A stretch of 64,000 nucleotides of DNA from an uncultured Gammaproteobacteria bacterium. Lineage in GTDB: Bacteria > Patescibacteriota > Microgenomatia > Levybacterales > GWA1-39-11. Positions 6,001 to 29,287 of this stretch are shown here, piece after piece. Positions within the stretch are counted from its first letter, which is position 1; each line of letters begins with the position of its first letter. The position numbers were made by a program, and so were the translations under genes. The stretch spans positions 921-64,920 of the forward strand of contig CAZAJO010000008.1 in assembly GCA_964485575.1 (NCBI GenBank), given 5' to 3'. The notes below the pieces were generated by a model that saw nothing but the letters and a program-made list of their open reading frames with translations, was not told the DNA's origin and made no database searches.

Positions 6001-9000
6001 TTGCATTGACAGTTCCAACAGATAAGGTGCCGACAGTTCCATTGTCTGTGAGCGTAAGAAGTGTATTTGGAGACCCTTCAGCATCAGATATTGTCAGAGT
6101 TCCATCTGTACCTGCAGTTGCCAGCCTTATATTTGGATTTGCATTTGAAAGAGTGAGAGGTGATGACCCGGTAAGAGTTGCTGTTCCGCTTGCCGTTAGG
6201 TTTGTTATTCCTGTAATTGAACCTGTGTTTATTATTCCTCCTGAATTGTTATTAATACCACCCTTAAGGTATGCTCCTCCTGAATTAACAGTGAGAGCAC
6301 CTGCAGACGTGATTGTTCCGGTAGCAGTTGTAGTGATATTTCCGCTAGTTGAAATATTTCCAAGCTCTGAAATCGACAATTTTGAAACACCAGCAGATTG
6401 AACATCAAGAGCAACCCCTCCGGTTCCAGCATTGGTGTCATTGATGACAAATGCATTGGCAGACCCGGCATTCGTTAGAGTGAATTGAGTAGAAAGACCA
6501 GAGTCTAATGTGAAGTCAATGTTGCGTCCAGAGGTCGTAAGGATAGTGTTACCGGCATCATATGCTTGCTGTAATGTAACGGCACTTGCGTTTGCTGCAC
6601 AAGTAGAGAGTTGGTTGCTCGCGTTTCGGCAAACTGTTGTTAACCCGGTCGTTGCTGAAAGGGTAGCAACCTGGACGTAGTTGTTTAGGAGTATTTCGCC
6701 CGTTCCATTTGGTGCCAAAGTAAGGTTCTCATTTGGTCCTGTTGTGATATCGGTTGGAACTCCATTAAATGTTAAAACACCACTTGTTGTTATTGCACCT
6801 GAGCTTATTGTATTGATATTTGTCAGGTTACCGATTACATCTAATCTTGTTACTCCATTAGTTTGAATATTATTTGTAGCATTGAGGGTAGCTCCCTCAA
6901 TTGTGCCACTGGCTGTAATGTTTGTTGCACCTGTTATTGCACCGGTATTTGTGATTCCACCTGCGTTATTGTTGATGCCTCCTGTTATTGATGCACCTCC
7001 TGTTGTGACAGTAAGTGCTCCACCGATGGTTTGACCGACGGTGAAGTTGTTATCTTGACCCTTATAAGCAACGTTTGAAAGCGTACCGGTTGTATTAATG
7101 CTTGTTCCATTGAGAAGGAAAGCTGTAGTTGCGTTGATATTGGCTACGGCAAGAGTTGCAGTTGTACCATTATCGGTAAGAGTGAGAAGTGTATTTGGTG
7201 CTCCATTTGAATCTCTTATTGTCAGAACCCCGGCTGCATTTCCAGCTCCAAGTGTGATTATTGGAGTTGTATTTGAAAGGGTTAATGGCGAACCACTGGA
7301 AAGTGTTACCGTTCCAGAAGCAGCAATCGTTGTTGCACCGGCGATTGCACCGGTATTTGTTATACCACCTACATTATTGTCTATACCCCCAGTGATATTT
7401 GCTCCACCAGCACTGATGGTAAGACCGCCCGATGATATTGTTTGAAGAGCGGTGAAAGTATTGGCTTGATTTTGGTATGCAACGTTTGTGAGAGTTCCTG
7501 CTGTGTTGATATCAACTCCATTAAGTTGAATAACTGACGTACCATTAATGGTTGCTCCTTGAATAGTGCCACTGGCTGTGATGTTAGTAGCACCAGTAAT
7601 GGCGCCGGTATTGGTGATACCACCGGTATTATTGTTGATACCTCCAGTTATAGATGCTCCATCCGCACTGATAGTGAGTCCGCCGGTTGTGATCGTCTGA
7701 AGAGCCGTAAAGGTATTTGATTGATTTTGGTAAGCAACGTTTGTTAATGTACCTGCAGTGTTGATATCAACCCCACCGATCTGCAATGTCGTTCCAGCAT
7801 TTACTGATCCTGTAACAGAAAGATTCCCGACAGAACCAGCATCTGTCAAGGTTAGCAGAGTATTTGGAACACCTGCAGAATCTTTGATCGTAAATGTTCC
7901 ATTGGCATTTGCAGCACCCAATGTAACAATCGGATTCGTGTTACTAAATGTAAGAGGGGAGCCAGCAGAGAGTGTTACAAGTCCAGATGCTCCGATTGTT
8001 GTAGCACCTGAGATAGCACCAGTGTTTGTGATGCCACCTGTGTTATTGTTAATTCCTCCAGTTATTGATGCGCCACCCGTTGTAACCGTTAAAGCTCCAC
8101 CGATAGTCTGACCCACGGTGAAGTTGTTATCCTGTCCTTTGTAGGCGACATTACTAAGAGTGCCGGTTGTGTTGATGTTTGTTCCTCCTAGTAAGAATCC
8201 GTTCGCTGCATTTATTGTTCCTGTAACCGAAAGATTTCCAACTGTACCGGCATCGGTAAGAGTCAAAAGTGTATTTGGAGAACCTTCTGCATCTTTTATT
8301 GTTAATACTCCATCAACTCCAGCAGTTGCCAGAGAGATATTTGGAGTCCCGTTGGTAAGAGCAAGAGGATTTGCCCCTGACAATGTAACGACGCCTGATG
8401 CATCAATTGTTGTTGCTCCGGATATTGAAGCCGTGTTTATTATTCCGCCATTGTTGTTGTTGATACCACCAACGACTGAAAGACCACCAGCAGAAATAAT
8501 CTGTGCAGCCGTAAATGTATTTGATTGATTTTTGTATGCAACATTGGACAAAGTGCCTGCTGTGTTAATATTTGTTCCATTCAATTGAATTGCAGTAATT
8601 GCATTGAGTATATCGGTCTGAGTCGTTCCACTTGCTGTAATATTTGTAGCACCCGTAATTGCACCCGTATTTGTAATGCCTCCGGTATTATTATTAATAC
8701 CTCCAGTTATATCGGCTCCACCAGCTTGAATAGCAAGTCCCCCTGTTGTGATTGTTTGACCTGCTGTGAAAATATTAGCTTGGTTGAGATAGGCAACATT
8801 CGTAAGCGTACCTGCAGTATTTATGTTGGTTCCATTCAATAGATAACCGGTCCCAGCATTTATTGTTCCTGTGACTGAAAGATTGCCAACGGTACCGGCG
8901 TCGGTAAGTGTTAGAAGTGTGTTGGGGGAACCTGCAGAATCCCTTATTGTCAAAACACCATTCGCATTACCAGCTCCTAATGTCACTATCGGATTGGTAT

Positions 9001-12000
9001 TACTAAAAGTTAATGGAGATGCAGCAGATAAAGTAACAAGTCCTGATGCTCCAATTGTTGTTGCACCGGAGATAGCACCGGCATTTGTGATACCACCAGT
9101 ATTATTGTTGATGCCCCCGGTTATTGACGCTCCACCCGCACTTACGGTTAATGCTCCTGCTGATGTTATTGTTCCAGTTCCAGTTGTTGCGATGTTTCCA
9201 GATGTTGTGATGGTTCCAAGTTCTGTGATTGTCAAAGCTGAAGCGCTTGCAGACTGTATTTCAAATGCGATTCCACCTGATCCGGTACGTACGTCATTTA
9301 TGACAAACGCGTTCGCGCTTCCGGCATTCATGAGAGTGAAGGACGTTGGAGTTCCCGAATCCGTGTTTTCATCGTAAAGCGTAAAGTCGATATTTCGACC
9401 GGAGGTTGTAAGAATTGTATTCCCAGCATCATAAGCAAGTTGAAGCGTAACGCCATTTGAATTTGGTGCACATGCAGACAAGAAGTCACCTGCATTGCGG
9501 CACAAAGCCGTCGAGCCGTCAGGTGAAGCAAGAGTTGGAATCTGTATCGTATCATTGAGGTTGATAACTCCCGATCCATTAGCAACGAGTGTAAGATCTT
9601 CATTGCTTCCAGTTGTAATGTCTGTTGCAGCACCAGTTATAGTAACGGTTCCTGCGATATTTTGTGCAGTTGTGAAATTGTTGTTCTGGCCTTTGTAAGC
9701 AACATTTGTGAGAGTTCCGGTTGTGTTGATGCTTGTGCCATTCAATTGGAACACTGAGGTAGCATTGATAGTCGCACCTTGAATTGTGCCTGAAGCGGTG
9801 ATGTTTGTCGCTCCTGTTATTGCACCCGTGTTTGTGATACCACCGGTATTATTGTTGATGCCTCCGGTGATATTTGCACCACCAGCATTTATTGTAATAC
9901 CTCCTGTATTTATCGTCTGGCCGATGGCAAAAAGATTTGCCTGATCAAGATATGCAACGTTTGAAAGAGTTGTACCAACATTTATGTTGGTACCGTTCAG
10001 TAAAAATCCGGTTGTTGCATTGATGTTGGCAACTGCAAGTGTTGCATTTGTTCCATTATCGGTAAGTGTCAGAAGGGTATTTGGTGACCCTTGAGCATCT
10101 GCAATAGTGAGGACACCATCAACTCCGGTGGTTGCCAATGTTAGAACTGGTGCTGCATTTGAGAGAGTAAGCGGGGAAGCACCTGATAATGTCACGACAC
10201 CCGAAGCAGTGATATCTGTTACTCCAGAAATAGCTCCTGTGCTTGTTATTCCACCAGCGTTATTATTGATACCTCCGGTTATTGATGCGCCTCCGGTTGT
10301 GACGGTTAAAGCTCCACCGATGGTTTGGCCAACCGTGAAGTTGTTGTTTTGTCCTTTGTATGCGACGTTTGTGAGAGTTCCGGTTGTGTTGATGTTTGTT
10401 CCGTTCAATAGATATCCTCCAACTGCATTGATTGTTCCAGTCACTGAAAGATTTCCTACTGTACCAGTATCGGTTAATGTAAGAAGCGTGTTTGGAGAAC
10501 CCTCTCCATCTCTTATCGTGAGCGTACCATTGGATCCTGCTGCAGCCACAGTTATTGCAGAGGTGGTCGCAGTAAGTGCGAGTGGGGTACTACTTGAGAG
10601 TGTAACAAGGCCAGATGCATCAATCGTTGTTGCACTGCCAATAGCGCCGGTATTTGTTATACCTCCATTGTTGTTATTAATACCCCCAGTGACGGATAGC
10701 CCACCTGATGAGATTATTTGTGCTGCAGTGAATGTATTGGATTGATTCTTGTATGCAACATTTGTGAGAATACCTGCGGTATTTATATCAGTTCCGTTCA
10801 GCTGAAGAGCAGTAATAGCATTGATGATATCTCCCTGAATCGTTCCTGACGCAGTAATATTTGTAGCACCGGTTATAGCACCTGTGTTTGTGATACCACC
10901 AGTATTGTTGTTAATTCCACCGGTTATTGATGCGCCACCGGTTGTGACGGTTAAGGCTCCACCGATGGTTTGGCCAACTGTGAAGTTATTGTTTTGTCCT
11001 TTGTACGCAACGTTTGTGAGAGTTCCGGTTGTGTTGATGTTAGTTCCACCCAAAAGTATTCCTGTTCCTGCATTTATGGACCCTGTCACTGAAAGATTAC
11101 CTGTAGTACCGGTGTCTGTTAATGTTAGAAGGGTATTTGGAGCTCCTTCTGCATCTTTTATAGTAAGGACTCCATTCGTGCCAGCTGTAGCAAGAGTAAT
11201 TACTGGAGCACTATCTGAAAGAGTTAGAGGTGCGGCATTTGAAAGGGTCACAACTCCAGAGGCGTCAATTGAAGTTGCGCCACTTATCGCACCGGCATTT
11301 GTGATACCCCCTGCGTTGTTGTTGATACCACCGGTAACATCAAGCCCACCGGCTTGGATTGCAAGTCCCCCAGTCGTAATGATCTGACCGGCAGTGAAGG
11401 TATTTGATTGGTTTTTATATGCAACGTTTGTGAGGGTGTTTGCAGTATTTATATTTGCACCATTCAATTGAAGAGCACTTGTCGCATTGATCGTGCCAAC
11501 TGTCAAAGTTGCAACAGTTCCGTTGTCAACAAGAGTAAGAAGTGTATTTGGTGTTCCATTTGAATCTTTGATTGTAAGCGTACCGGCAGCATTTCCAGCA
11601 CCCAAAGTGATGATTGGAGTAGTGTTTGAAAGCGTAAGTGGGGAGGCTCCTGATAGCGTCACTACACCTGAAGCAGCAATTGTAGTTGCTCCGGCGATTG
11701 CACCTGTGTTTGTGATGCCACCATTATTATTGTTGATTCCACCAGAAATGTTTGCACCCCCCGCAACAACAGTTATTCCGCCGGTATTGATGGTTTGTCC
11801 CAAGGTGAATGTATTAGCAGTATCAAGGTACGCAACGTTTGATAATGTACCACCGGTATTTATATTTACACCGTTGAGTTGAATTGCTGTTATCGCATTT
11901 AATATATCTGTTTGCGTCGTTCCTGATGCAGTAATATTTGTAGCACCGGTTATGGCACCCGTGTTTGTGATGCCACCAGTGTTATTGTTAATTCCACCTG

Positions 12001-13350
12001 TTATTGAAGCGCCACCTGTTGTGACGGTTAAGGCTCCACCGATGGTTTGGCCAACAGTGAAGTTGTTGTTTTGTCCTTTGTACGCAACGTTTGTGAGAGT
12101 TCCGGTTGTGTTGATGTTTGTTCCGTTGAGTTGGAATCCACTAACAGCATTTATTGTGCCACTTATTGCAAGATTTCCAACGGTACCAGCGTCGGTAAGC
12201 GCAAGAAGGGTATTTGGTGACCCTTCTGCATCCCTGATCCTCAACACTCCATTATTTCCTGCGGTTGCAAGCGTAATATCAGGAGCACTGTTAGACAGAG
12301 TGAGTGGGGCAGCCGAGGAGAAGGTGTTGGTATTAGTAAATACGTTTGCTTGGTCTAGATAGGCAACATTTGATAGTGTTCCACCCACATTTATACTTGT
12401 TCCGTTGAGCTGGAATGCTGTCAATGCGTTGATTGTATCTCCCTGAATAGTTCCCGACGCAGTGATATTTGTTGCTCCTGTTATTGCACCGGTGTTTGTG
12501 ATTCCACCATTGTTGTTGTTGATTCCACCTGTTATTGAAGCGCCCCCCGCACTAACAGTAAGGGCACCTGCTGAGGTTATAGTTCCAGTTCCAGTTGTCG
12601 CGATGTTACCTGATGTTGATATAGTACCTAGCTCAGAAATTGTTAACGCAGAGACACTTGCAGACTGTACCTCAAAAACAATTCCACCCGATCCAACATT
12701 TGAGTCATTGATCACAAAAGCGTTTGCGCTTCCTGCATTTGTAAGTCTTAACTGAGTCGTAAGACCGGAATCAAGAGTGAAGTCGATGTTCTTTCCTGCA
12801 GTTGTAAGGATCGTATTTCCACCGTTATATGCTGATTGTAAGGTTACTCCAAATGCTGTAGGGTCACATTGTGAAAGTTCATTCGTTGCATTTTGACAAA
12901 GGACGGTAAAGCCTTGAACACCTGCAAGTATTGGAATTCCAACTGTATCGTTAAGTACAATCTTACCTGTACCATTTGCTAGCAGTGTAAGATCCTGATT
13001 TGATACTGTTGTTATATCTGTTGAAACTCCACTAAATGTAAGTGTACCTGTGGTGGTGATAGCCCCAGAAGCTATTGTTCCAATGTTGACAAGATTTCCT
13101 GATGCGTCAACCCTTTGCGTTCCATTCGTCTGTATCGAAGTTACTGCATTTAGTATATCCCCCTGGCTAGTGCCAGATGCTGTTATGTTTGTTGCTCCTG
13201 TAATTGAACCAGTGTTTGTTATACCACCTGTGTTATTGTTGATTCCACCGTTGATAGATGCCCCTCCAGCTGTAACAAATAGTCCATTAGCTGAAGTTAT
13301 CGTTCCTGAACCGATTGTCTGGATGCTATTTGAAGATGAAATGTAACCAC
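1..13350 (-). repeat. intragenic repeat zone 3: super-repeats of one Cys-loop module plus 2-9 short NVAY-type beta-strand units
   Basis: C-x9-C pairs lie at 12866/12896, 9470/9500, 6599/6629, 3974/4004 and 1388/1418. About 28 copies of the antisense signature of NVAY(K/L/Q)(G/N)QNN.FT are spaced about 250-285 or 390-430 nt apart. Each carries GGINNNTGGITNTGAI.GATNITASG. Segments 4875-5029 and 7095-7249 are 152/155 identical. Confidence 0.85.
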
Positions 13351-16300
13351 TCGTTGAGGCATTTCCGCTTTCATCAATGGTAAGTCTTCTATTTCCACCA
13401 GACTGGATTTCAAGAGCTACTTGGTTTGGAGCGGCATTATTATCATTGATAATAAATGCCGATGCTGTTCCTTCGTTTGTTAAAGTAAGTGAGGTTGCAG
13501 CATTGAGACCGGAAGCAAGAGTAAAGTCGATGTTTCTACCCGAGTTTGTAAGAATTGTATTTCCGTTGTCATAGGATGATTGCAAGGTGCCTGCTGATGA
13601 GCCAACGTCGCAGAGAACTACTTCATCATCTCCATTAGTACAAAGAGGACTTCCAACAACAGTAACTAAGTTCTCTATGGTTACCGTACTGTTTGCTGCA
13701 AGTGTAGTGAATTTTCCTGATGAGCGCGTAGTGTTTCCGATTGGTGTATTGTCTATAGATCCTCCCGTTATAACAGCGTTACTTGAAGAGAGATTGTTTG
13801 CAGTAACTGCACCAACGAGATTTACCGTATCTGTTCCGGATCCGATATTAATAAAGTCTGGACTCGTGTTGTCTGTTCCGATATTGACGGTGTTACCGGT
13901 CGACAACGTTCCAATATTGATTGAGCCATTGGCTGATGCTCCGGCTCCTGCATTAATTGTGACTGATCCACCGGTTGATCCTCCGGCAGTAGATGTCCCA
14001 GCAACTAGTCTGAGATTTCCACCCGTAGCATCAACAGTAGAGCTTGCCGGATTGATAGTGATATCAGTTCCACCAACGAGGGTAGTAATGTCTGATGTGT
14101 TGTCTCCGGCAAGATATATAACTCCTGCCTCAGACACCTTAAGGGTTGATGCGCCATTTGACTGAAGATCAAAGAATGTACCGCCTCCCCCAGCTGATGT
14201 GTCATTGAGAATGAATGCACTTGCAGTACTTTGATTTTCCAAAGTGAAAGATGTTGGAAGATTAAGACCCGGAGCCAATGTGAATGCAATATTTCGTCCG
14301 TCATTTGTAAGGATTGTATTTCCATTATTGTATGAGGACTGAAGGGTTCCGGTTCCTGATCCTATTGAACATTTGATTATGTTATCGAATGAATCTATAC
14401 ATAGCGCAGTTCCTGAGCTTGTCGTCAAATTTTCGATAAGGACAGTGCTATTGGCAGCAAGTGTTGTGAATGCACCAGAAGAGCGGACGGTAGCACCAAC
14501 GCTCGTTCCATTTATAGTTCCTCCAGTAACAGTCACTCCGCTTGAGTTGAAGTTGTTAGCTGTAACTGACCCGACAAGGTTTATGGTGTCTAACAAAGAC
14601 CCTATATTGACAATATCGGCCAAGGTATCATTTGTTGCTATATTTATGACATTTCCCCCGGTTCCGGTTCCTATATAGATAGTCTTTGCACTATTACCAA
14701 TACCTAGATTAATGTCTCCTGTCGTTCCTGTATCAAGAGTTAGGGAATTGGAACCTGTAGCAGATATCGTTCCGACTCCAGCAAAAGTTAGATCGGTTGC
14801 ACTAACGCCAATTGTGTCAAGACTAATGACGCCCGTTAATGCTCCAAGCGTTGTGACATTTAATCCTCCGTTTGATGTGACCGCAAAAGTACCGGTAGCA
14901 TTGCCAATTGCTACATTTCCTGTTCCGGTTGTTGCGATGTTTACATCGGATGCACCTGAAGTTCCAAGATTTGTCGTACCTGTTGATGAAAGAGTTGTAA
15001 AGGCTCCCGTTGATGGGGTTGTTGCACCAATTGCAGTACTATTTATACCTGTTGCGGTTGCTGTGAAGTTGCCTGAAGTGATCAGTAAATTGTTGACTCC
15101 GGCATTGATAGATGATGCAGACAAACCTGAAAGACTGAGTACCCCGGAAGTTGCGGTAAGATTGATTGCCCCGGTCGTCAGGGTCAACCCATTTGATGCT
15201 GTCAAAAGACCAGCAGATGTTATAGTACCGGTTCCGGTTGTTGCTATATTTCCACTTGTTGTAAGATTTCCAAGCTCATTTATGGTCAAAGTTGCAGATC
15301 CGGAGGACTGAATCTCAAGAGCAGTATTTGTATTCTCGTTATTGTCGTTGATGATAAATGCAGAAGCTGTCCCTTGGTTTGTGAGAGTCAATGAGGTCGT
15401 CTGATCTTGACCCAATGTAAAGTCAATACTTCTTCCAGGAGTCGTTGTTATAGAGTTCCCAGTGTTGTAAGCAGCCTGCAGTCCAAATGGTGCACCGTTA
15501 CAGTACGCAAGGTTGTTACTTACGTCCAAACAAAGGGTGTTCCCATTCTGAGTCTGTAGACCATTGATCTGGATTCTCTCATTAGATGTTGTATTGAACA
15601 CTACGTTGTTACCGGTTGATGGTGTAAATACAGCAGATCCTGAAGCATCAAATGAATTTCCATTTGTGATAATCACATTTCCGTTGAAAGTAGAGATCCC
15701 AGCAACATCTAGAGTACTTCCAAGAGTAGTAGCTCCAGTCCCAACGCTAAAGGTATTGCTACCGGTGACCGTTGTATTCCCGTTCAACGAAACGTTACCG
15801 GTACCCGTGGAGAACGTGTATGCTCCAACTTGGGTAATATTATTATTGAAAGTTCCAACTCCATTGACAGTCAATGCACCTCCAAGAGTCGTAAGACCGG
15901 TTCCTACGGTAAATGTATTTGCTCCCGTTACTGATGTATTTCCATTCAGAAGAGTCAGTGCATTAATGTTGAGGTTCCCAATCCCATTTAATGGGCTTAG
16001 TGTGATTTCACCTGTTGTGTCACCACCGATGGTGAGTGCACTAAGCTCTGTGGTCTGAATAGAACGTGGTGCTCCTGCAAGTGTCAAATTACCAGAGATA
16101 GATGCATTACTGGTCGTCGTAAGCAAAGTGAAATTACCGGTTGAAGGAGTAGTTACTCCAATTGCAGTACCGTTGATACCCGTTGCGGTAGTATTGAAAT
16201 TATTTGATGTGAAAGTCAAATTGTTTCCTCCGGTGTTGATACTTGATGCAGAAAGCCCAGAAAGATTTAATGTTCCCGAAGTTGCGGTTAGATTGAGTGC

Positions 16301-19300
16301 TCCTGTTGTTAATGTCAGTCCGTTTGATGCTGTCAAAAGACCTGCAGAGGTTATTGTTCCAGTGCCGGTTGTAGAAATATTGCCACTAGTTGTTAGATTT
16401 CCAAGCTCATTGATAGTGAGTGTAGCAGATCCCGAGGACTGGATCTCAAGGGACGTATTGGTATTTGCATTGTTATCGTTAATGATAAATGCACTAGCTG
16501 TACCAAGGTTTGTTAGTGTGAGTGAAGTTGTCTGATCCTGACCCAATGTGAATGCCAAATTTCGTCCAGGAGTTGTCGTTATCGTATTTCCTGTATTATA
16601 TGCAGCTTGAAGTCCGAAAGGTGCTCCGTTACAGTACGCAAGGTTGTTACTTACGTCAAGACATAGAGTATTACCATTCTGAGTCTGTAGACCATTTATC
16701 TGTATCCTCTCAGTACCAGTAGTATTGAATACTACATTGTTCCCAGACGAAGGAGCAAAAACAGCAGCGCCTGAAGCGTTGAATGAATTACCTGTTGTTA
16801 TAAATACGTTACTGTTAAATGTTGCAGTGCCCGCAACATCAAGAGTGCTTCCAAGAGTTGTAGCACCGGTTCCGACAGTAAAGGTATTGGATCCGGTAAC
16901 TGAAGTGTTTCCATTGAGTGAAACATTACCAGTTCCTGTTGAGAATGTGCCTGTCCCTGTTTGGGAAATGTTGTTGGTAAATGTGCCGACTCCATTAACT
17001 GTTAGTGCTCCCCCGAGTGTTGTAAGCCCGGTTCCAACAGTTAAAGTGTTCGTACCTGTAACTGATGTATTACCGTTTAGAGTGATTGCGCCAGTTCCAG
17101 TTGTGAATGTGCTAGCACCTACCTGGCTTATGTTGTCATTAAATGTGGATACACCTAAGACATTCAATGTACCGTTGAATGCTGAATTTCCATTGACCGT
17201 AAAGTTACCTGCACCTGAAAGAGGGGATACCACAATATTTCCTGTCGTATTTCCACCAATTGTAAGAGTGTTGTTCTCGGTTGTCTGGATCGAGCGGGGA
17301 GCACCGGCAAGAGTTAGATCTCCAGAGAATGATGCAGTACCAGTTGTTGTTAGATTTGTGAAATTACCCGTCGATGGAGTAGTAGCACCGATGGCAGTGT
17401 TGTTTATGCCAGTAGCAGTGACGGTAAAATTACCGGATCCGATGAGTAAATTATTTCCTCCAAACTGTAGTGATGAAGCAGATAGACCAGACAAATTGAG
17501 TGCTCCTGATGTACCGGTGATATTAACAGCACCAGTCGTTACGCTGAGTCCGTTTGACGCTGTCAATAGCGCATTAGATGTTATAGTGCCTGTTCCGGTA
17601 GTTGCTATATTTCCACTCGTTGTAAGATTTCCAAGCTCGTTTATAGACAAAGTTGCAGATCCCGAAGACTGGATTTCAAGAGATGTATTAGTATTGGCAT
17701 TATTGTCATTGATGATAAATGCTGAAGCAGTACCCAGATTAGTCAGGGTAAGAGATGTTGTCTGATCTTGACCCAATGTAAATGCAAGGTCACGACCCGG
17801 AGTTGTCGTTATCGTGTTTCCGGTGTTGTATGCTGCTTGAAGTCCAAATGGAGCACCGTTACAGTATGCAAGATTATTGCTTACATCCAAACAAAGGGTG
17901 TTCCCATTCTGAGTCTGTAACCCATTGATTTGAATTCTTTCATTTGAGGATGTATTAAATACGACATTATTGCCGGTAGAAGGTGTAAATACAGCTGATC
18001 CTGAAGCATTGAATGAGTTACCAGTTGTTACAAATACGTTGCCATTAAATGTTGCTGTACTAGCAACTGTAAGCGTACTGCCCAACGTTGTCGCACCAGT
18101 TCCGACTGAGAACGTATTGCTTCCTGTGACAGATGTATTTCCATTCAAAGAAACTGTTCCAGTCCCTGTTGAGAATGTACCGGTGCCAACTTGGCTAATA
18201 TTGTTGTTGAATGTTGCAGCCCCTTGTACACTCAAAAGGCCAGTGATGTCGGTGTTACCAGCAATCTGCACAAGTCCAGTCGTATTACCACCGATAGTCA
18301 GAGTGTTAAAGTCGGTCGTCTGAATTGAGCGTGGGGCACCTGCAAGAGTCAGATTCCCAGAGAATGAGGCATTCCCCGTAGTTGTGAGTGTAGTGAAATT
18401 ACCGGTGGAAGGGGTAGTGGCTCCTATTGCAGTATTGTTGATTCCGGTCGCAGTTGTATTGAAGTTTGATGAGGTGAATGTCAGAGCATTTGCACCTGAA
18501 TCAAATGTAGACGCACCAAGTCCAGTAAGAACAATTGCGCCTGAAGAACCAGTTATGTTTACAGCTCCAGCTGTGACTGTAAGGCCATTTGAAGCAGTTA
18601 ATAATCCGTTAGATGTTATTGTTCCCCCTGAGGTTGTGAGGATATTGTCAATAGTTGAAAGAGTTCCATTCTCACTTATTGTAAGCGTAGCCGAACCACT
18701 ACTTTGAATAGACAGTGCATTTTGGATAGAAGCATTGGTGTCATTGATAACAAATGCTGCACTTCCGGTTCCGGCATTGGTGAGCAGGAACTGACGTGAT
18801 GAAAGATCAGCAAGTGTAAAGTCAATATTCCCATGAAGATCGTTAGCAACTATGGTATTTCCTGAATTGTATGCCTGCTGTAGGGTAACATTAAGAGCGT
18901 TTGATGAACAAATAGAAAGCTCGTTTGCCCCATTTCGACAAACAACTGTCGCACCAACGGTTCCTGAAAGATTTGGAATCCTTGTTATAGTATTTAGTAC
19001 TATTTGTCCCGTTCCGTCAGGTGAAAGAGTAAGATCCTCATTTGAATTGGTTGTGATATCTGTTGCAGCACCTGAGAATATGAGCCCTGTAGATCCTATC
19101 GATTTATTTGAAAGAGTCTGGGTCTGATTAGCAAAAATGAATGTGTCATCTGCAGTGAGTGCTGGAATGGTGGCAAATCTTGACGCAGAGGGAGCAAGAG
19201 ATGTGATTGTCGTAGTATTAGTCGTTCCAAGTACTACCTGGTTTGTTGTGTTTGTGAGATTTAGAGACGCAAATGTTGGCGATGATGTCGCAGCGATACT

Positions 19301-22300
19301 TTGAGGTAATGAAAGAGAAATAGTACCAGACCCATTAGCCACGAGAACTTGATTTGAAGTACCCGTAATAGTATTCAAACTAAACCCTGACCCATTCCCT
19401 ATGAGAAGAGCTCCATTTGGAGCAGCAGAACTATCCACCCCGGTTCCACCTCTCAAAGGTGCGAGTTGTTGTTCTGAGGCAAGAACACCTGATGCGTTAT
19501 TGATGACAACTCCAGCTGTTGTAAACGGAGATATGGTGACAGATGTATTTGCCGTAACTGTTGTGAATGCTGCAGTTGACGGAGTAGTGGCTCCAATAGC
19601 AGTGCTATTGATTCCAGTTGCCGTGACGTTTAAGTTTGCTGCTCCGATGAGTAAATTATTTCCCCCAAACTGTAGAGATGAGGCAGATAGACCTGAAAGA
19701 CTGAGGGCTCCTGACGTGCCTGTGATATTGACTGCCCCTGTCGTTACGGTAAATCCATTTTGTGCTGTAAGAAGTCCTGCGGATGTTATGGCACCGGTAC
19801 CAGTAGTCAGGATATTTCCGCTAGTCGAAAGGTTACCAACAGACGTTAAGTTTCCGTTCTCAGAGATAGTAAGAGTTGCGCTACCACTTGATTGAGCTTG
19901 GAATACATCCTGAAGTGAGGCATTCGTGTCGTTTATGACAAAAGCAGCTGACCCAGTCCCTGCATTTGTAAGCAAAAATTGACGGGATGAAAGGTCAGCA
20001 AGAGTAATGTCGATATTACCTTCACCATCGGTTGCGCTAATAGTGTTTCCTGCTTCGTAAGCCAGTTGGAGCGAAATATTAGCAGCATTTGCAGGACACT
20101 CAGTTATCTCGTTTGTTATATCATCACGGCACAAGGTGGTCGCGCTTAGTCCAGCAGCTGGAAGATTAAGTAGTTTGGTTATATTTGAAAGGACGATCTG
20201 ACCCGTTCCATCAGGGGTAATAGTAAGGTCTTGATTCGATACGGTTGTGATATCGGTCCCTACACCATTAAAGGTTAGTGACCCTGTCGCTGTGATTGCT
20301 CCCGTTGACAAGCTATTGCTTGTGATCGAACCAGTTGTTATAAGATTTCCATTCTCAGAAATCGTGAGCGTTGCTGAACCGCTACTTTGAATAGATAGAG
20401 CATTTTGGATAGAGGCATTCGTGTCGTTTATGACAAATGCTGCTGACCCAGTACCGGCATTGGTAAGGAGGAATTGGCGAGATGAAAGGTCAGCAAGAGT
20501 GAAATCGATATTACCTTCACCATCGGTTGCGCTTATAGTGTTTCCTGCTTCGTATGCCAGTTGAAGCGAAATATTAGCAGCATTTGCCGGACACTCAGTG
20601 ATTTCATGAGAAGAATCATCACGGCAAAGTGTTGTTCCACTTACACCTGCTAATGGTAAGTTCTCTAATCGTGCAATATTTGAAAGTACGATTTGACCGG
20701 TTCCATTAGGTGTAAGCGTAAGATCTTCGTTACTGACCGTAATCAGGTCATTTGCAGCTCCAGAGAACACGAGTCCTGATGCTCCAATAGTTTTGTTAGT
20801 CAACGTTTGCGTTTGTGCCGCAAAAATAAAGGTGTCATCAAACGTGAGCGCTGGAAGTGTTGCAATACGTGGAGCACCCGGTGCTGGAGAATTTATTGTT
20901 GTAGTGTTTATTGTTCCTAATGACAATTGGTTTGTCGTTGCAGCAAGTCCGAGATTTCCTGCATATGAAAGTGTCGCAGCGTTGTCTCCCGCATTATTCA
21001 CGAATGCCAATTGGTATGTCGGTGCAGTTGTTAAGATCTGATTTTGGAGACTGAATGTCAGGTTATTTGACGAAGCCCCATTCCAGTAGGATCCTTGTAA
21101 TGACAATAGGTTTGAATTATTCAATGTTGCTCCACTCGTTGATGTGGCAAGTCTCAAAAGAGAGAGGGTATCAACTCCTGTCTGGTCGCCGACATTAAAA
21201 GCTGTCAGAGAAGTTATCGTCGTACCATCGTCTGTAAAATTAGAATCCCCGATATTTGATCCCGTTACGGTAAACTTGGCAAGTCTATTAAGAGTTCCAG
21301 CTCCTCCGACAACTCCACCGGCTCCAGCACAGTTTCCGACAGTAAGACAGACTGTCCCGTCATAGTCTGGAATACTTATTGTCCTCAAAGTTCCAGTTGT
21401 TATTTGACTAAGATCAAATAAGAATTGCTTTGTATTATCACCGTCATCCTGGAATGTGATTGAATTATCTGTAAGTAGTTTGTTTGTTAGAGTCTGGCTT
21501 TGGTTGGCAAAGATAAATGTGTCATTTGCACTAAGTCCTGGGATCGTAGCAATCCTTGAAGCTGCTGGCGCAACCGAGGAGATAGTCGTTGTGTTCCCAG
21601 TTCCCAAAACCAATTGATTTGTTGCCGCAAGGGAAGTAAGAACTCCTGCAGTCGTTAGATTCCCGTTCTCATTAATGGTAAGAGTAGCAGAGCCACTGCT
21701 TTGAATAGATAGGGCATTTTGTACGGACGCATTTGTATCATTTATGACAAATGCAGCACTTCCTGTACCTGCGTTTGTGAGCAGGAACTGTCGTGATGAA
21801 AGATCTGCAAGAGTTAGTGAAATATCACCAAACGAGTTAGAAGCGCTGATTGTGTTTCCAGCTTCGTACGCTAGCTGAAGGGAAATGTTTGCTGCATTTG
21901 CTGGACATTCGGTGACCTGATGAGATAAATCATCGCGGCAAAGTGTCGTTGCGGCAACACCTGCGACTGGCAGGTTCTCAAGACGCGTGATATTGGAAAG
22001 AACAATCTGGCCGGTTCCATTTGGAGTAATGGTAAAGTCCTCGTTGGCAAGCGTTGAGATGTCTGTTGCAGCACCAGAGAAAACAAGACCAGTCGTACCA
22101 ATGGTCTTATTGGTGAGGGTTTGAGTTTGCTGCGCGAAAATAAATGTATCATCGACGGTAAGTGCTGGTAATGTTGCAATTCGTGGGGCAGAAGGCGCAA
22201 CCGAACTTATTGTTGTCGTGTTTCCAGATCCCAAAACCAATTGATTGGTTGCCGCTTGCGCTGTCAAAGTTGTTGCTGAAAGGATAGACCCGGTTCCGGT

Positions 22301-25300
22301 GGTTAGGATATTTCCCGACGTTGATAGGAGCCCATTTTCATTGATGGTAAGAGTTGCGCTACCACTGCTTTGGATAACGAGTGAATTATTGACAGAACCG
22401 CTCGTATCATTGATTACAAAAGCACTTGCTGTTCCGACGTTTGTTAGAAGGAGGGAAGTCGAAAGACCTGATCCTAATGTAAAGTCGATATTCCTATTTG
22501 CTGTTGTAGTTATCGTATTTCCTGAATCATAAGCAAGCTGCAATGAGACGTTGCTAGCATTTGCCGGACATTGTGTAATCTCGTTACTGACGTTATCACG
22601 ACAAAGGGTAGTTGCGGCAACTCCGGCAGCAGGAAGACTACCAAGTCTTACTGTATTCGAAAGAACAATTTGCCCAATCCCTGAAGCAGACAAAGTCAGG
22701 TCTTCATTGCTTGCGGTCGTTATGTCTGTGGCAGCACCTGAAAAGATAAGACCTGTAGATCCGATTGTCTTGTTACTTAATGTCTGCGTTTCGTTTGCAA
22801 ATACAAAAGTGTCTGACGCATTTAAAGCAGGTATCGTTGCTGTCCTTGGGACTGACTGTGAGTTGGAGTTTATAACAAGCGTATTACCGGCAGCACCTAG
22901 CGTAAGCTGATTACTTGTGTTTGAAAGTGTTTGCGATGCGAATGTCGGTGACGAAGTAGCGGCAATATCTTGAGGCGTAGAAAGAACAATTGTTCCACTA
23001 CCGTTCACAACATTTACCTGATTTGATGTACCTGAAATGTAATTAAGACTAAGTCCGGTACCATTGCCTATTAAAATCTGCCCAGGCAAAGCTGCTGATG
23101 TATCAAGGCCTGTTCCTCCTCGAGCCGGATTGAGTTGAGCGATAGTTGAGAAAACTCCCGAAGAATTATTGATTACAACTCCATCTGTTATGAAGCTTGA
23201 AAGAGTAAAAGCACCATTTGCCGACAGGTTAGTAAAAGCACCCGTTGAAGGGGTAGTACTACCCACAGCAGTACTGTTGATTCCGGTAGCTGTTGTGTTG
23301 AGGTTTGCTGATGTAATGAGTAAGTTATTTACTCCAGTTGATATACTTGAACCAGATAGGCCTGACAAATTAAGCGTACCTGCAGTAGCGGTAAGGTTAA
23401 GAGTGCCGGTTGTTAATGTAAGACCGTTTGATGCAGTAAGTGTTCCGGCTGAAGTAATAGTACCTGCTCCGGTTGTTAAGATATTTCCACTCGTTGACAA
23501 AATACCGTTCTCGTTGATGGTAAGTGTCGTTGAACCACCTGATTGCACTTCCAATGCATTCTGGATAGCAGCATTTGTATCATTGATAACAAGTGCTGAA
23601 GAGGCGGTTCCTGCATTTGTTAGGGTTAATGCACGGGCACTATCAGATGCCAACGTAAAGTCTAAGTTGCCGATAGAATCTGAAACGCTTATCGTGTTTC
23701 CGGAATTGTAAGCAAGTTGCAGTGAAATGCCACCAGCGTTTGCTGGACATTGAGTTATCTCGTTGCTGACGTTATCGCGACAAAGAGTTGTAGCACTTAC
23801 CCCAGGCCCTGGAAGATTTAAAAGACGGGTAGTGTTGGAAAGAACGATTTGCCCTGTCCCATTTGGAGTAATGGTGAAGTCTTCATTGGCAAGCGTTGAA
23901 ACATCAGTCGCTGCTCCTGAAAAGGTAAGGCCGGTCGCACCGATAGTCTTGTTGGAAAGAGTCTGTGTTTCATTGGCAAAGACAAATGTGTCATCCGCAG
24001 AAAGTGCTGGTAGTGTCGCAATTCTGGCAGCTCCCGGAGCAGGAGAGGTAATAGTTGTCGTGTTACCGGTCCCCAAGACTATCTGGTTTGTAACAGCCTG
24101 AGCAGTCAATGTTGTTGCAGAGACAATTGTGCCGGCACCAGTCGTTAGGATATTGCCGGATGTTGATAAATTATCTCCAGCAGTTGTTGGGGCGATTGTA
24201 GAGGTTCCATTGTTGCGGGTGAAAAATCCGACAGTACCCGAAGTATTGGTTGTTGTTATATTTCCAGAACATACAAGATTGCCAGTTGCGTCATCAATTG
24301 TACATCCCGTTGTGCCTGATCCCCCTGCAAGAGAAACATCCCCATCAGACGCAATTAGGAGCGCTTGCGCTCCTGTAGTGGTGTTGTATATCGTGAATTG
24401 TGACGTATCCACATTCACGGAATAATCATCCTGACCCACATCACTATCCACGAAAAATACCGAAGGATCAGAATTGGCTATAGTGATATCTCCGCCTGCT
24501 GTAGTTGTACCGGTGAGATAAAGATTTCGATAACGCCTGAGCGCAGAACCGAGATCGTAGGTATCATCAGCACTTGGTCCGATACTTCCAGCAACCTCAA
24601 GCCTAAAAGGATTACCATCAGCATCGAGGTCATCTGGTGCAACACCAATACCGAGACGGCCATTCGGAATCGTGACGAGTCCCGCTCCAATCGTCGCAGT
24701 GTCTAGGGCAGAACCGATATTGATGATATCAGCGGCAGTGTTGTCCGTTGCAATATTTATGACGTTTCCAGCCGTACCTGTGCCGACATTGATGATTTTT
24801 GCATTGTTTCCGGTGCCAAGATTGACTGTGCCGGTCGTGCCACTGTCAAGCGTCAAAGAGCTAGCTCCAGCAGAGAGCACTGACCCTGCACCTGTAAAAC
24901 TAAGGATTGTACCGCCTAGGTTAAAGTTGTTAGCAACGCCTGTTACTGATGTCAAGGTAGAAGATAATTGGATGTTGGCTTCTCCTGATGGACTTTCTGT
25001 GACATCAAAATCTCCACCAAGAAAATCCAGAGCATTTATCACATTCGAGACGACTACATCATTCTCTTTGATAGTTGCAACAGCAAAAGATGTGATATTA
25101 GTCCAAGAAGGAATGCCTGATGGGTCAACTGTTAAAAACTGTCCAGTCGTTCCGATCGGCAGCCCTGCAAGAACGTCAGTGGAAGCTGCATAGATGATGT
25201 CACCGGTCGTGTATGTAGAAAGTCCAGTTCCACCTACACCAACACTTATAAGTCCCGTCTTTATTGCTTCTCCGGCTACCGATCCTCCAGACCCAATTGT

Positions 25301-26113
25301 TAAAGTATTTGCAATATCTGGATCAGTGAGACATGAAGAACAATGTCCACGTGCAACCAAAGTTTCGAGTGTCGTTATGTCGGAAATGGTGAGATCAGTT
25401 ATCTGTATGCCATCACCCGCAAGAAGCTCTATATCACCTGTCTGACCCTGGAGTGAAGTAACCCCACTGGCATCCACAGAAATCGTGGGGGACTGTGGAT
25501 CTCCACTCAAAGTCACATTGTCACCAGCGGTTAGACTGTAGACTACATTTGGAGCTGTGATATTCCCTTTGAAAAGACTCGTACCCTCAACGAGAAGATT
25601 TTTCTTTATCGTTAGGTTCTCACGAGCAACAACCGGCAGTCCAAAAATCACACTACCGGTTAGCTTCAATTTGCTTGTTTGGGTTCCAAGTACTTCCGGT
25701 GTTTCGGTTGCGACATCTGTAGATTTAATTATTTTTGGAGCTGAATTCTTTATTAGCTGTTGCCTTGCAAAAACACCAGTAACGAAAAGTGCTGAGGCTA
25801 AAACACCGAGAACCAGGGTTTTCTTTGTTGGTTTGAGGTATGCGAATTGAAAGAATAGCCTTGTAGCCTCAAAAAGGAGGCTCATACTGTTGATAAATGA
25901 CTGAAATGGGCTTATAGTTTTATCAGCTGATGGAACAGCATCCACCTTAGCTTTGCTAGCTTCTACGAGCTTGGTAAGATCATCTTGCCTGTACTGAAAT
26001 TCTCCTTTTTCGTTGGTAAATGGGGTAAGTGAGTGGCGGTCGCAGAGATACACAAGGGTTTCTACTGAAACACCAAGCTGACGAGCTGCCTGTTTTAACG
26101 TTAATAATTTCAT
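1..26113 (-). CDS. giant N-terminally membrane-anchored repeat (beta-strand-rich, adhesin/fibre-like) protein, partial: >=8,704 codons in window, C-terminus beyond position 1
   Basis: ATG at 26113-26111; hand translation gives MKLLTLKQAARQLGVSVETLVYLCDR... Seventeen Cys-loop motifs between 1388 and 24304 all lie in the ATG frame (lowest codon coordinate = 2 mod 3). The last in-window codons (40-2: LTQVSTLGTNGNV) are in the same frame. The track lists no minus ORF starting at 26113, as expected for an ORF running off the window (ppa at the right edge is omitted the same way). Confidence 0.88.
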   Translation of the reverse strand, partial: MKLLTLKQAARQLGVSVETLVYLCDRHSLTPFTNEKGEFQYRQDDLTKLVEASKAKVDAVPSADKTISPFQSFINSMSLLFEATRLFFQFAYLKPTKKTLVLGVLASALFVTGVFARQQLIKNSAPKIIKSTDVATETPEVLGTQTSKLKLTGSVIFGLPVVARENLTIKKNLLVEGTSLFKGNITAPNVVYSLTAGDNVTLSGDPQSPTISVDASGVTSLQGQTGDIELLAGDGIQITDLTISDITTLETLVARGHCSSCLTDPDIANTLTIGSGGSVAGEAIKTGLISVGVGGTGLSTYTTGDIIYAASTDVLAGLPIGTTGQFLTVDPSGIPSWTNITSFAVATIKENDVVVSNVINALDFLGGDFDVTESPSGEANIQLSSTLTSVTGVANNFNLGGTILSFTGAGSVLSAGASSLTLDSGTTGTVNLGTGNNAKIINVGTGTAGNVINIATDNTAADIINIGSALDTATIGAGLVTIPNGRLGIGVAPDDLDADGNPFRLEVAGSIGPSADDTYDLGSALRRYRNLYLTGTTTAGGDITIANSDPSVFFVDSDVGQDDYSVNVDTSQFTIYNTTTGAQALLIASDGDVSLAGGSGTTGCTIDDATGNLVCSGNITTTNTSGTVGFFTRNNGTSTIAPTTAGDNLSTSGNILTTGAGTIVSATTLTAQAVTNQIVLGTGNTTTITSPAPGAARIATLPALSADDTFVFANETQTLSNKTIGATGLTFSGAATDVSTLANEDFTITPNGTGQIVLSNTTRLLNLPGPGVSATTLCRDNVSNEITQCPANAGGISLQLAYNSGNTISVSDSIGNLDFTLASDSARALTLTNAGTASSALVINDTNAAIQNALEVQSGGSTTLTINENGILSTSGNILTTGAGTITSAGTLTASNGLTLTTGTLNLTATAGTLNLSGLSGSSISTGVNNLLITSANLNTTATGINSTAVGSTTPSTGAFTNLSANGAFTLSSFITDGVVINNSSGVFSTIAQLNPARGGTGLDTSAALPGQILIGNGTGLSLNYISGTSNQVNVVNGSGTIVLSTPQDIAATSSPTFASQTLSNTSNQLTLGAAGNTLVINSNSQSVPRTATIPALNASDTFVFANETQTLSNKTIGSTGLIFSGAATDITTASNEDLTLSASGIGQIVLSNTVRLGSLPAAGVAATTLCRDNVSNEITQCPANASNVSLQLAYDSGNTITTTANRNIDFTLGSGLSTSLLLTNVGTASAFVINDTSGSVNNSLVIQSSGSATLTINENGLLSTSGNILTTGTGSILSATTLTAQAATNQLVLGSGNTTTISSVAPSAPRIATLPALTVDDTFIFAQQTQTLTNKTIGTTGLVFSGAATDISTLANEDFTITPNGTGQIVLSNITRLENLPVAGVAATTLCRDDLSHQVTECPANAANISLQLAYEAGNTISASNSFGDISLTLADLSSRQFLLTNAGTGSAAFVINDTNASVQNALSIQSSGSATLTINENGNLTTAGVLTSLAATNQLVLGTGNTTTISSVAPAASRIATIPGLSANDTFIFANQSQTLTNKLLTDNSITFQDDGDNTKQFLFDLSQITTGTLRTISIPDYDGTVCLTVGNCAGAGGVVGGAGTLNRLAKFTVTGSNIGDSNFTDDGTTITSLTAFNVGDQTGVDTLSLLRLATSTSGATLNNSNLLSLQGSYWNGASSNNLTFSLQNQILTTAPTYQLAFVNNAGDNAATLSYAGNLGLAATTNQLSLGTINTTTINSPAPGAPRIATLPALTFDDTFIFAAQTQTLTNKTIGASGLVFSGAANDLITVSNEDLTLTPNGTGQIVLSNIARLENLPLAGVSGTTLCRDDSSHEITECPANAANISLQLAYEAGNTISATDGEGNIDFTLADLSSRQFLLTNAGTGSAAFVINDTNASIQNALSIQSSGSATLTISENGNLITTGSITSNSLSTGAITATGSLTFNGVGTDITTVSNQDLTITPDGTGQIVLSNITKLLNLPAAGLSATTLCRDDITNEITECPANAANISLQLAYEAGNTISATDGEGNIDITLADLSSRQFLLTNAGTGSAAFVINDTNASLQDVFQAQSSGSATLTISENGNLTSVGNLSTSGNILTTGTGAITSAGLLTAQNGFTVTTGAVNITGTSGALSLSGLSASSLQFGGNNLLIGAANLNVTATGINSTAIGATTPSTAAFTTVTANTSVTISPFTTAGVVINNASGVLASEQQLAPLRGGTGVDSSAAPNGALLIGNGSGFSLNTITGTSNQVLVANGSGTISLSLPQSIAATSSPTFASLNLTNTTNQVVLGTTNTTTITSLAPSASRFATIPALTADDTFIFANQTQTLSNKSIGSTGLIFSGAATDITTNSNEDLTLSPDGTGQIVLNTITRIPNLSGTVGATVVCRNGANELSICSSNALNVTLQQAYNSGNTIVANDLHGNIDFTLADLSSRQFLLTNAGTGSAAFVINDTNASIQNALSIQSSGSATLTISENGTLSTIDNILTTSGGTITSNGLLTASNGLTVTAGAVNITGSSGAIVLTGLGASTFDSGANALTFTSSNFNTTATGINNTAIGATTPSTGNFTTLTTTGNASFSGNLTLAGAPRSIQTTDFNTLTIGGNTTGLVQIAGNTDITGLLSVQGAATFNNNISQVGTGTFSTGTGTVSLNGNTSVTGSNTFSVGTGATTLGSTLTVASTATFNGNVFVTTGNSFNASGSAVFTPSTGNNVVFNTSSNERIQINGLQTQNGNTLCLDVSNNLAYCNGAPFGLQAAYNTGNTITTTPGRDLAFTLGQDQTTSLTLTNLGTASAFIINDNNANTNTSLEIQSSGSATLSINELGNLTTSGNIATTGTGTITSNALLTASNGLSVTTGAVNITGTSGALNLSGLSASSLQFGGNNLLIGSGNFTVTATGINNTAIGATTPSTGNFTNLTTTGTASFSGDLTLAGAPRSIQTTENNTLTIGGNTTGNIVVSPLSGAGNFTVNGNSAFNGTLNVLGVSTFNDNISQVGASTFTTGTGAITLNGNTSVTGTNTLTVGTGLTTLGGALTVNGVGTFTNNISQTGTGTFSTGTGNVSLNGNTSVTGSNTFTVGTGATTLGSTLDVAGTATFNSNVFITTGNSFNASGAAVFAPSSGNNVVFNTTGTERIQINGLQTQNGNTLCLDVSNNLAYCNGAPFGLQAAYNTGNTITTTPGRNLAFTLGQDQTTSLTLTNLGTASAFIINDNNANTNTSLEIQSSGSATLTINELGNLTTSGNISTTGTGTITSAGLLTASNGLTLTTGALNLTATSGTLNLSGLSASSINTGGNNLTFTSNNFNTTATGINGTAIGVTTPSTGNFTLLTTTSNASISGNLTLAGAPRSIQTTELSALTIGGDTTGEITLSPLNGIGNLNINALTLLNGNTSVTGANTFTVGTGLTTLGGALTVNGVGTFNNNITQVGAYTFSTGTGNVSLNGNTTVTGSNTFSVGTGATTLGSTLDVAGISTFNGNVIITNGNSFDASGSAVFTPSTGNNVVFNTTSNERIQINGLQTQNGNTLCLDVSNNLAYCNGAPFGLQAAYNTGNSITTTPGRSIDFTLGQDQTTSLTLTNQGTASAFIINDNNENTNTALEIQSSGSATLTINELGNLTTSGNIATTGTGTITSAGLLTASNGLTLTTGAINLTATSGVLSLSGLSASSINAGVNNLLITSGNFTATATGINSTAIGATTPSTGAFTTLSSTGTTNLGTSGASDVNIATTGTGNVAIGNATGTFAVTSNGGLNVTTLGALTGVISLDTIGVSATDLTFAGVGTISATGSNSLTLDTGTTGDINLGIGNSAKTIYIGTGTGGNVINIATNDTLADIVNIGSLLDTINLVGSVTANNFNSSGVTVTGGTINGTSVGATVRSSGAFTTLAANSTVLIENLTTSSGTALCIDSFDNIIKCSIGSGTGTLQSSYNNGNTILTNDGRNIAFTLAPGLNLPTSFTLENQSTASAFILNDTSAGGGGTFFDLQSNGASTLKVSEAGVIYLAGDNTSDITTLVGGTDITINPASSTVDATGGNLRLVAGTSTAGGSTGGSVTINAGAGASANGSINIGTLSTGNTVNIGTDNTSPDFINIGSGTDTVNLVGAVTANNLSSSNAVITGGSIDNTPIGNTTRSSGKFTTLAANSTVTIENLVTVVGSPLCTNGDDEVVLCDVGSSAGTLQSSYDNGNTILTNSGRNIDFTLASGLNAATSLTLTNEGTASAFIINDNNAAPNQVALEIQSGGNRRLTIDESGNASTSGYISSSNSIQTIGSGTITSANGLFVTAGGASINGGINNNTGGITNTGSITGATNITASGTSQGDILNAVTSIQTNGTQRVDASGNLVNIGTIASGAITTTGTLTFSGVSTDITTVSNQDLTLLANGTGKIVLNDTVGIPILAGVQGFTVLCQNATNELSQCDPTAFGVTLQSAYNGGNTILTTAGKNIDFTLDSGLTTQLRLTNAGSANAFVINDSNVGSGGIVFEVQSASVSALTISELGTISTSGNIATTGTGTITSAGALTVSAGGASITGGINNNNGGITNTGAITGATNITASGTIQGDTINALTAFQLNGTSINVGGTLSNVAYLDQANVFTNTNTFSSAAPLTLSNSAPDITLATAGNNGVLRIRDAEGSPNTLLALTDAGTVGNLAISGTINAVSGFQLNGTNINTTGTLTNVAYKGQNNNFTVGQTIGGALTVTTGGASITGGINNNTGGITNTGAITGATNITASGTTQTDILNAITAIQLNGVNINTGGTLSNVAYLDTANTFTLGQTINTGGITVVAGGANISGGINNNNGGITNTGAIAGATTIAASGVVTLSGASPLTLSNTTPIITLGAGNAAGTLTIKDSNGTPNTLLTLVDNGTVATLTVGTINATSALQLNGANINTANTLTNVAYKNQSNTFTAGQIITTGGLAIQAGGLDVTGGINNNAGGITNAGAISGATSIDASGVVTLSNAAPLTLSDSAPVITLATAGTNGVLTIKDAEGAPNTLLTLTDTGTTGNLSVTGSINAGTGILLGGTNINTTGTLTNVAYKGQNNNFTVGQTIGGALTVTTGGASITGGINNNTGGITNTGAITGATNITASGTIQGDIINAITALQLNGTDINTAGILTNVAYKNQSNTFTAAQIISSGGLSVTGGINNNNGGITNTGAIGSATTIDASGLVTLSSSTPLALTATTSAITVAAAGSNGTLTIRDGEGSPNTLLTLTDTGTVGNLSVTGTINAVGGYLLNGTNINTTGTLTNVAYKGQNNNFTVGQTIGGALTVTTGGASITGGINNNAGGITSTGAISGVTDITASGVVTLSGASPLTLSNAAPVLTLATTGVDGVLTIADAQGSPNTLLTLTDNGTNATLAVANINATTGFLLNGTNINVGTTLSNVAYLDQANLFAIGQTINTGGITINAGGANITGGINNNTGGITNTGAITGATNITASGTIQGATINATSVFQLNGTSINTTGTLTNVAYKGQNNNFTTAQNIAGTVTITGAATDITTGSNEDLTLVANGSGVINLNDTIQIPTLASPDGSTALCRNAGDFLSACAPNSNGVTLQLAYDAGNTILTTSGRNIDFTLYDENTDSGTPTSFTLMNAGSANAFVINDVRTGSGGIAFEIQSASASALTITELGTITTSGNIATTGTGTITSAGALTVSAGGASITGGINNNTGGITNAGAISGATTIGASGLVTLSAASPLTFSNTNPIVTLGAGNANGVLTIRDSAGSPNTLLTLTDAGTVGNLSVTGTINAGTGYLLNGTNINTAGTLTNVAYLNQANIFTAGQTITTGGLAIQAGGADITGGINNNTGGITNTGAITGATNITASGTTQTDILNAITAIQLNGTNINTAGTLSNVAYKNQSNTFTAAQIISAGGLSVVGGINNNNGGIINTASISGATTIDASGVVTLSGANPLALTNGTPNISLATAGVDGVLTIKDAEGSPNTLLTLTDAGTVGNLSVTGTINAANGFLLGGTNINTTGTLSNVAYKGQDNNFTVGQTIGGALTVTTGGASITGGINNNTGGITNTGAISGATTIGASGLVTLSAGSPLTFSNTNPIVTLGAANANGTFTIKDSAGVPNTLLTLTDAGSVGNLSVTGSVNAGTTLQIGGVDINTAGTLTNVAYQNQSNTFTALQTITTGGLTISADGASITGGINNNTGGITNTGAITGATNITASGTIQGATINGTSVIQLNGVDINTAGTLTNVAYQNQANTFTALQTISSGGLTISAGGANITGGIDNNVGGITNTGAIAGATTIAASGTVTLSSGSPLTLSNTTPIITLGAGNAAGVLTIRDSNGAPNTLLTLTDNGTTATLAVANINATTAFLLNGTSINTTGTLSNVAYKGQDNNFTVGQTIGGALTVTTGGASITGGINNNAGGITNTGAITGATNITASGTIEGATLNATNNIQTNGVTRLDVIGNLTNINTISSGAITTSGVLTFNGVPTDITTGPNENLTLAPNGTGEILLNNYVQVATLSATTGLTTVCRNASNQLSTCAANASAVTLQQAYDAGNTILTTSGRNIDFTLDSGLSTQFTLTNAGSANAFVINDTNAGTGGVALDVQSAGVSKLSISELGNISTSGNITTTATGTITSAGALTVNSGGAYLKGGINNNSGGIINTGSITGITNLTASGTATLTGSSPLTLSNANPNIRLATAGTDGTLTISDAEGSPNTLLTLTDNGTVGTLSVGTVNASTGFTLGGTDINTTGTLTNVAYKGQNNNFTVGQTIGGLLTVTTGGITVSAGGASINGGINNNAGGITSTGAIAGATTIAASGTVTLSSAAPITLTNSAPDITLGAGDANGTLSIKDSAGSPNTLLTLVDNGTDATLTVGTVNALSALQINGANINTTGTLTNVAYKGQNNNFTVGQTIAGLLTVSSGGASITGGINNNTGGITNTGAITGATNITASGTIQGATLNATSVIQLAGTDINTAGTLTNVAYQNQANTFTALQTITTGGLTINAGGANITGGIANNAGGITGTGAIAGATTIDASGTVTLSSASPLTFSNTNPIVTLGAGNAAGVLTIRDSNGAPNTLLTLTDNGTTATLAVANINATTAFLLNGTSINTTGTLSNVAYKGQDNNFTVGQTIGGALTVTTGGASITGGINNNTGGITSAGAISGATTIDASGTVTLSSASPLTLSNNAPVLTLATAGNNGVFTIKDAEVSPNTLLTLTDNGTNGTLTVANVNATTALQFNGTNINTTGTLSNVAYKGQNNNFTVGQTIGGLLTVSAGGANITGGINNNAGGITNTGAVSGATNITASGTIQGGTLDATTSVQTSGTDRIDASGNLVNIGTISSGAITTTGTLTFDGVSTDITTGTNEDLTLTPNGTGQIVLSNLTQVPTLGTNGTIGLCRNALNQIATCNAATATLQTAYDNGNTITTTTGRNIAFTLAGGLGSPTSFTLTNAGTANAFILNDTAAGTGGIAINVKSNGTSTLTIDELGNLTTSGNIVTTGTGAITAAGLLSATNGASISAGLDNNLGGITNAGAITGATNITASGTIEGDIINAVSAFQLNGTSINTAGTLTNVAYKNQNNNFTVGQTIAGLLTVSTGGASITGGINNNTGGLTNAGAISGATTIAASGTVTLSGVSPLTLSNASPIVTLATQGTNGVLTIRDAELSPNNLLTLTDYGDGGSLSVSSISATTSLQLNGVDINTAGTLTNVAYRNQNNNFTVGQTIAGLLTVSSGGASITGGINNNTGGISNTGAITGATNITASGTIQGATVNATSVIQLNGTDINTAGTLTNVAYQNQQNTFSQNNIFSNANPVTLSDNAPIVTLATIGNNGVLTIKDAEGSPNTLLTLTDAGTVGNLSLSGTINAVSGFLLNGTNINTTGTLSNVAYKGQNNNFTVGQTIAGLLTVSSGGASITGGINNNTGGITNTGAIAGATNITASGTVTLSGASPLTLTNAAPTAILGTAGVDSTLTINDGDANTLLSLTDAGTVGNLSLTGSVNAVTGFLFNGTNINTTGTLTNVAYKGQNNNFTVGQTIGGALTVTTGGASITGGIDNNNGGVTNTGAITGATNITASGTTQTDILNAITAIQLNGANINTAGTLTNVAYLNQANTFTNTNTFSSATPVVLSNTNPVITLGAGNAAGTLTINDSNGSPNTLLTLVDNGTVGTLTVGTVNASSNVQTNGTTRIDASGNLTNIGTVSSGAITTTGTLTFNGVSTDITTGTNENLTIAPNGTGEIILSNLVQVPTLGTNGTSGLCRNASNQIASCNANVNNVTLQQAYEAGNTISATDNEGNIDFTLANLNSRQFTITNAGTGSAALVINDTNASIQNALQIQSSGSATLAINENGNLTTSGNIVTTGTGTITAANGFVATAGGANITGGINNNTGGITNTGAIAGATNITASGTVQTDVLNAITAIQLNGLNINTAGTLTNVAYLNQANTFTNTNTFSSATPIILSNTNPVVTVGAGDAAGTLTIKDSAGSPNTLLSLVDNGTVATLSVDTINALSQLQVNGANINTTGTLSNVAYKGQNNNFTTAQTIGGLLTVSTGGLTVSAGGASITGGFNNNNGGITNAGAVSGVTTLDASGTVTLSGISPLTLSNTTPTITLSTLGNNGTLTIKDAEGSPNTLLTLVDNGTTATLSASSINGVTDIQTNGVRRIDASGNLTNIGTVSSGAITTTGTLTFNGVSTDITTGTNENLTIAPNGSGQILLSNLTQVSTLGTNGNV
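15300..18700 (-). repeat. intragenic repeat zone 2: three tandem units of about 1.13-1.23 kb
   Basis: The anchor motif LCLDVSNNLAYCNGAPFGLQAAYNTGN (Cys pairs 17861/17891, 16631/16661, 15500/15530) gives periods of 1230 and 1131 nt (both divisible by 3). Long DNA stretches around each anchor are near-identical. Confidence 0.85.
18700..24310 (-). repeat. intragenic repeat zone 1: seven Cys-loop modules (C-x10-C x6, then C-x9-C)
   Basis: Cys pairs at 24269/24302, 23747/23780, 22568/22601, 21905/21938, 20591/20624, 20096/20129 and 18908/18938. The last six are followed by the conserved (S/T)LQxAYxxGNTI..IDFTL..SRQFLLTNAGTGSAAFVINDTNAS.QNALSIQSSGSATLTI.ENGN; the first (24269/24302) is not. 19860-20115 and 20350-20610 are highly similar at DNA level; the minimal module is about 165 aa. 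Confidence 0.8.
25766..25819 (-). other. single transmembrane signal-anchor helix of the giant protein
   Basis: aa 99-116 TLVLGVLASALFVTGVFA is preceded by KPTKK (positive-inside). This implies an N-in/C-out topology with about 8,600 aa outside. Confidence 0.6.
25955..26113 (-). other. N-terminal helix-turn-helix segment (excisionase/MerR-like, HTH_17-type) of the giant protein
   Basis: aa 1-53 MKLLTLKQAARQLGVSVETLVYLCDRHSLTPFTNEKGEFQYRQDDLTKLVEAS fits the LTxxEAAxxLGVSxxT...LxP...GxxxFxxxDL pattern of HTH_17 domains (pattern from memory, not searched). Confidence 0.55.
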
Positions 26114-26158
26114 TGACGAGTTTTGACTATCGCGTATATATAAAACGGGTGTATATCT

Positions 26159-26188
26159 AATGTATCTATTTTCGATAAAACTAGTCAA
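26159..26188 (-). promoter_or_regulatory. candidate promoter of the giant gene
   Basis: Minus strand TTGACT (26188-26183) - N18 - TACATT (26164-26159), 45 nt upstream of the ATG. No obvious SD. Confidence 0.3.
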
Positions 26189-26600
26189 CGTATGTTAATG
26201 ATAGGTACTGTAACAAACTGTACTGTTTTTCATAAAAAAATATATAACGTGTAGAAGCGGTTAAAAAGCGAAAAAAAATGATGATGCATTATGTTATAGA
26301 AAGTAGTAGTCATCCTAAACCGTATCAAATCTTAAAAAACAGAATATATTTCACAAAAACTTTTCACGCACATTAATCTTATAGTAACTATTCAGCAAAT
26401 TTTAATATTTTTATTTTCTCAAAATTGCAGAAAAAAATATTTCATTTTTCGCAAAATTAAAATTGACTTTTCACAGAATTGCGATATTTGAAGCTAATTA
26501 TTTTACGGTATTATAAATTGCTTTGATATAACAGAATAAAATGCATTATTGAGTTTATTAGTAGTACATAATGTAATTTAGCTTGGATTCAAGGCCAAAT

Positions 26601-26873
26601 TTATTTATCCATGAAGAGAACTTCGATTCCTAAGAAGATATTAGCGCTGTCTTGTTTGACTTTCATGACAGCTTGTTCGAATTTCAACTCTTTTACTTTC
26701 TGACGGTTATCGTAAAGAACTAACTCTTGGCGTATGATAGAGATGAAGTTAGCATGCATCGGGTATATATCAAATGGTCCAACTTCATTGAAAGAACTTA
26801 TACGTTCAACCTCACCTTCATAGATAATGTTTTCAGTATCTCTGACTTTAACTTTGAATTTTTTCTCACTCAT
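26601..26873 (-). CDS. atpC: F1 ATP synthase epsilon subunit, N-terminal beta-sandwich only (90 aa)
   Basis: EVGPFDIYPMHANFISII matches the epsilon GxxGILPGHAPL region. It is the last gene of the atp cluster and has no C-terminal helical hairpin. Confidence 0.8.
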   Translation of the reverse strand: MSEKKFKVKVRDTENIIYEGEVERISSFNEVGPFDIYPMHANFISIIRQELVLYDNRQKVKELKFEQAVMKVKQDSANIFLGIEVLFMDK

Positions 26874-26883
26874 AAGATCCTAT

Positions 26884-29287
<2,404 letters not shown>

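Follow-up and report, generated by a model that had tools for sequence, protein, structure and literature searches.

What does a DNA-binding-type fold do at the probable cytoplasmic end of a giant surface protein, and is that fold real? The locus is carried by an ultra-small CPR bacterium. In the window (the whole 64,000-nt stretch analyzed), the ATG at 26113 opens a minus-strand ORF that runs for 8,704 codons without a stop and reaches the window edge at position 1; 8,588 aa of what must be a still longer protein are visible beyond the transmembrane (TM) helix. Residues 1-116 (MKLLTLKQAARQLGVSVETLVYLCDRHSLTPFTNEKGEFQYRQDDLTKLVE ... KPTKK-TLVLGVLASALFVTGVFA) are encoded by 26113..25766, and the N-terminal peptide quoted in the original prediction was found letter for letter in this translation. 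Protein features, all on the minus strand, are:

25958..26113, MerR/excisionase-type winged helix-turn-helix (HTH) domain, aa 1-52, predicted cytoplasmic
25913..25957, variable linker, aa 53-67 (ortholog identity, dN/dS, AlphaFold2 [AF2])
25829..25912, aromatic, moderately amphipathic juxtamembrane helix, aa 68-95, QFAYLKP at its end (AF2, hydrophobic moment, conservation)
25820..25834, KPTKK basic cluster, aa 94-98, on the N-terminal (predicted cytoplasmic) side of the TM helix (read from sequence)
25766..25819, single TM helix (signal anchor), aa 99-116, TLVLGVLASALFVTGVFA (hydropathy, AF2, relatives)
25619..25693, conserved extracytoplasmic motif VLGTQTSKLKLTGSVIFGLPVV, aa 141-165, common to the giants and 2-TM paralogs
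1..25765, giant T/G/N/A-rich repetitive ectodomain, aa 117-8704 and beyond, open at the window edge

Identity of the N-terminal domain

Profile searches with aa 1-151 matched HTH_17 (E = 5.9e-6, 26.9 bits, gathering cut-off 27.0; aa 3-52 against model positions 1-49 of 51) and MerR_1 (E = 1.6e-4, 22.2 bits, cut-off 21.6), evidence that is borderline yet significant. The assignment is backed by the AF2 model, in which aa 1-50 (pLDDT 86-89) adopt a beta-alpha-alpha-beta-beta-alpha topology, and by paralogs scoring above the MerR_1 cut-off. The N-terminus is thus a real, conserved MerR/excisionase-type HTH, as first proposed. It evolves under purifying selection (dN/dS 0.13-0.21), unlike the linker, which is neutral (dN/dS about 0.7-1 in closer comparisons and up to 2.7, noisier over its 15 codons, in the most distant), shares 13-40% amino-acid identity between orthologs, differs in length among them and has pLDDT <50 at aa 61-67. 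The juxtamembrane helix (AF2 helix aa 69-92, hydrophobic moment 0.35-0.40) is 86% identical to that of L003 with a dN/dS of 0.06; L003-L007 all keep [QK]FAYL[KR]P, and in the 2-TM paralogs QFAY..KKP recurs directly after TM2.

Membrane topology and ectodomain

Strong hydrophobicity is confined to aa 99-116 in the visible protein: the 19-residue Kyte-Doolittle mean at aa 98-116 is 1.90, the sole window >1.6 among 8,704 aa (next best 1.43). An AF2 helix (aa 97-123) covers the segment, and a TM helix lies at the equivalent place in all relatives long enough to show one. Of 16 family members, 13 have more lysine and arginine in the N-flank than in the C-flank (4 versus 4 in the window protein), charged residues make up 6% of aa 117-8704 versus 24% of aa 1-98, and aa 117-8704 contain 19 Cys pairs at 3-11 residue spacing; together these sequence features favor an N-in/C-out topology. 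Cleavage at the end of the hydrophobic segment, instead of a retained anchor, is formally possible, as a V-F-A↓R site there permits it, but with its start at aa 99 the segment lies much deeper in the protein than a classical N-terminal signal peptide would, in agreement with the predicted N-in anchor. Most likely, the HTH lies inside the cell and one membrane helix links it to the outside fibre. The ORF is rich in T (18%), G (13%) and N (11.5%); a Pfam search of the ectodomain gave almost no matches, and its dN/dS is 0.02-0.07. The aa 141-165 motif is 93-96% identical to L003 and L004, whereas the preceding 20 aa share just 25-80%, and it was found in P0003, P0007, P0008, P0010, P0017-P0020 and the L009 giant.

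Relatives and upstream region

The module (HTH, linker, aromatic juxtamembrane helix, TM, extracellular VLGxQTSKLKL motif) was found at ~30 loci in related CPR genomes, the sole correctly labelled one being Levyibacteriota. The original architecture (N-terminal DNA-binding-type fold, one TM helix, giant extracellular-looking body) is kept in every relative recovered. Wherever a locus extends far enough upstream, the gene is found just past the ATP synthase operon; in one clade, a 2-TM paralog of roughly 450 aa, which carries this module too, directly precedes the giant gene. Upstream features (minus strand) are:

26114..26158, conserved 5' leader (ACACCCGTTTTA...AAACTCGTCA; alignment of L001-L007)
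26159..26188, TTGACT-18-TACATT, a promoter-like site some 40 nt ahead of the ATG
26209..26222, TACAGT-TTGT-TACA(GT), a direct repeat some 20 nt ahead of the -35 box

The leader has no obvious Shine-Dalgarno sequence and is near-identical in L001-L007, whereas the N-terminal 150 aa share just 39-76% identity. The promoter-like site, the only one detected in 25900-26900, is kept in L001-L007, and a TTGACTA box also precedes P0010, P0007 and P0019 (distant relatives). The repeat, kept in L001-L007 with one exact copy in the window and not found in distant relatives, may be part of the giant gene's regulation.

DNA binding and proposed role

The HTH would serve as a cytoplasmic docking or oligomerisation domain, a role favored over that of a membrane-tethered ToxR/Notch-like regulator. 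It may alternatively act as the plug or export signal suggested originally. The DNA-binding options put forward with it (tension sensor/regulator, nucleoid tether) are weakened: family HTH cores have a net charge of -4 to 0 (with just one basic residue in one of them) versus +1 to +4 in the canonical MerR-type repeats of one co-retrieved protein. Ordinary DNA binding is doubtful: throughout the family the HTH has an acidic or neutral character, and it lacks the recognition-helix and wing arginines found at the aligned positions of MerR-type proteins; judged from these residues, that activity may have been lost. In agreement with the original remark, literature searches turned up no characterised example at this scale. 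As far as could be found in the literature searched, the architecture has no earlier description and extends the membrane-tethered HTH theme; the positions that align with Arg/Lys of the recognition helix and wing in MtaN, RacA and the co-retrieved MerR-type repeats are occupied by Glu or hydrophobic residues in this family.

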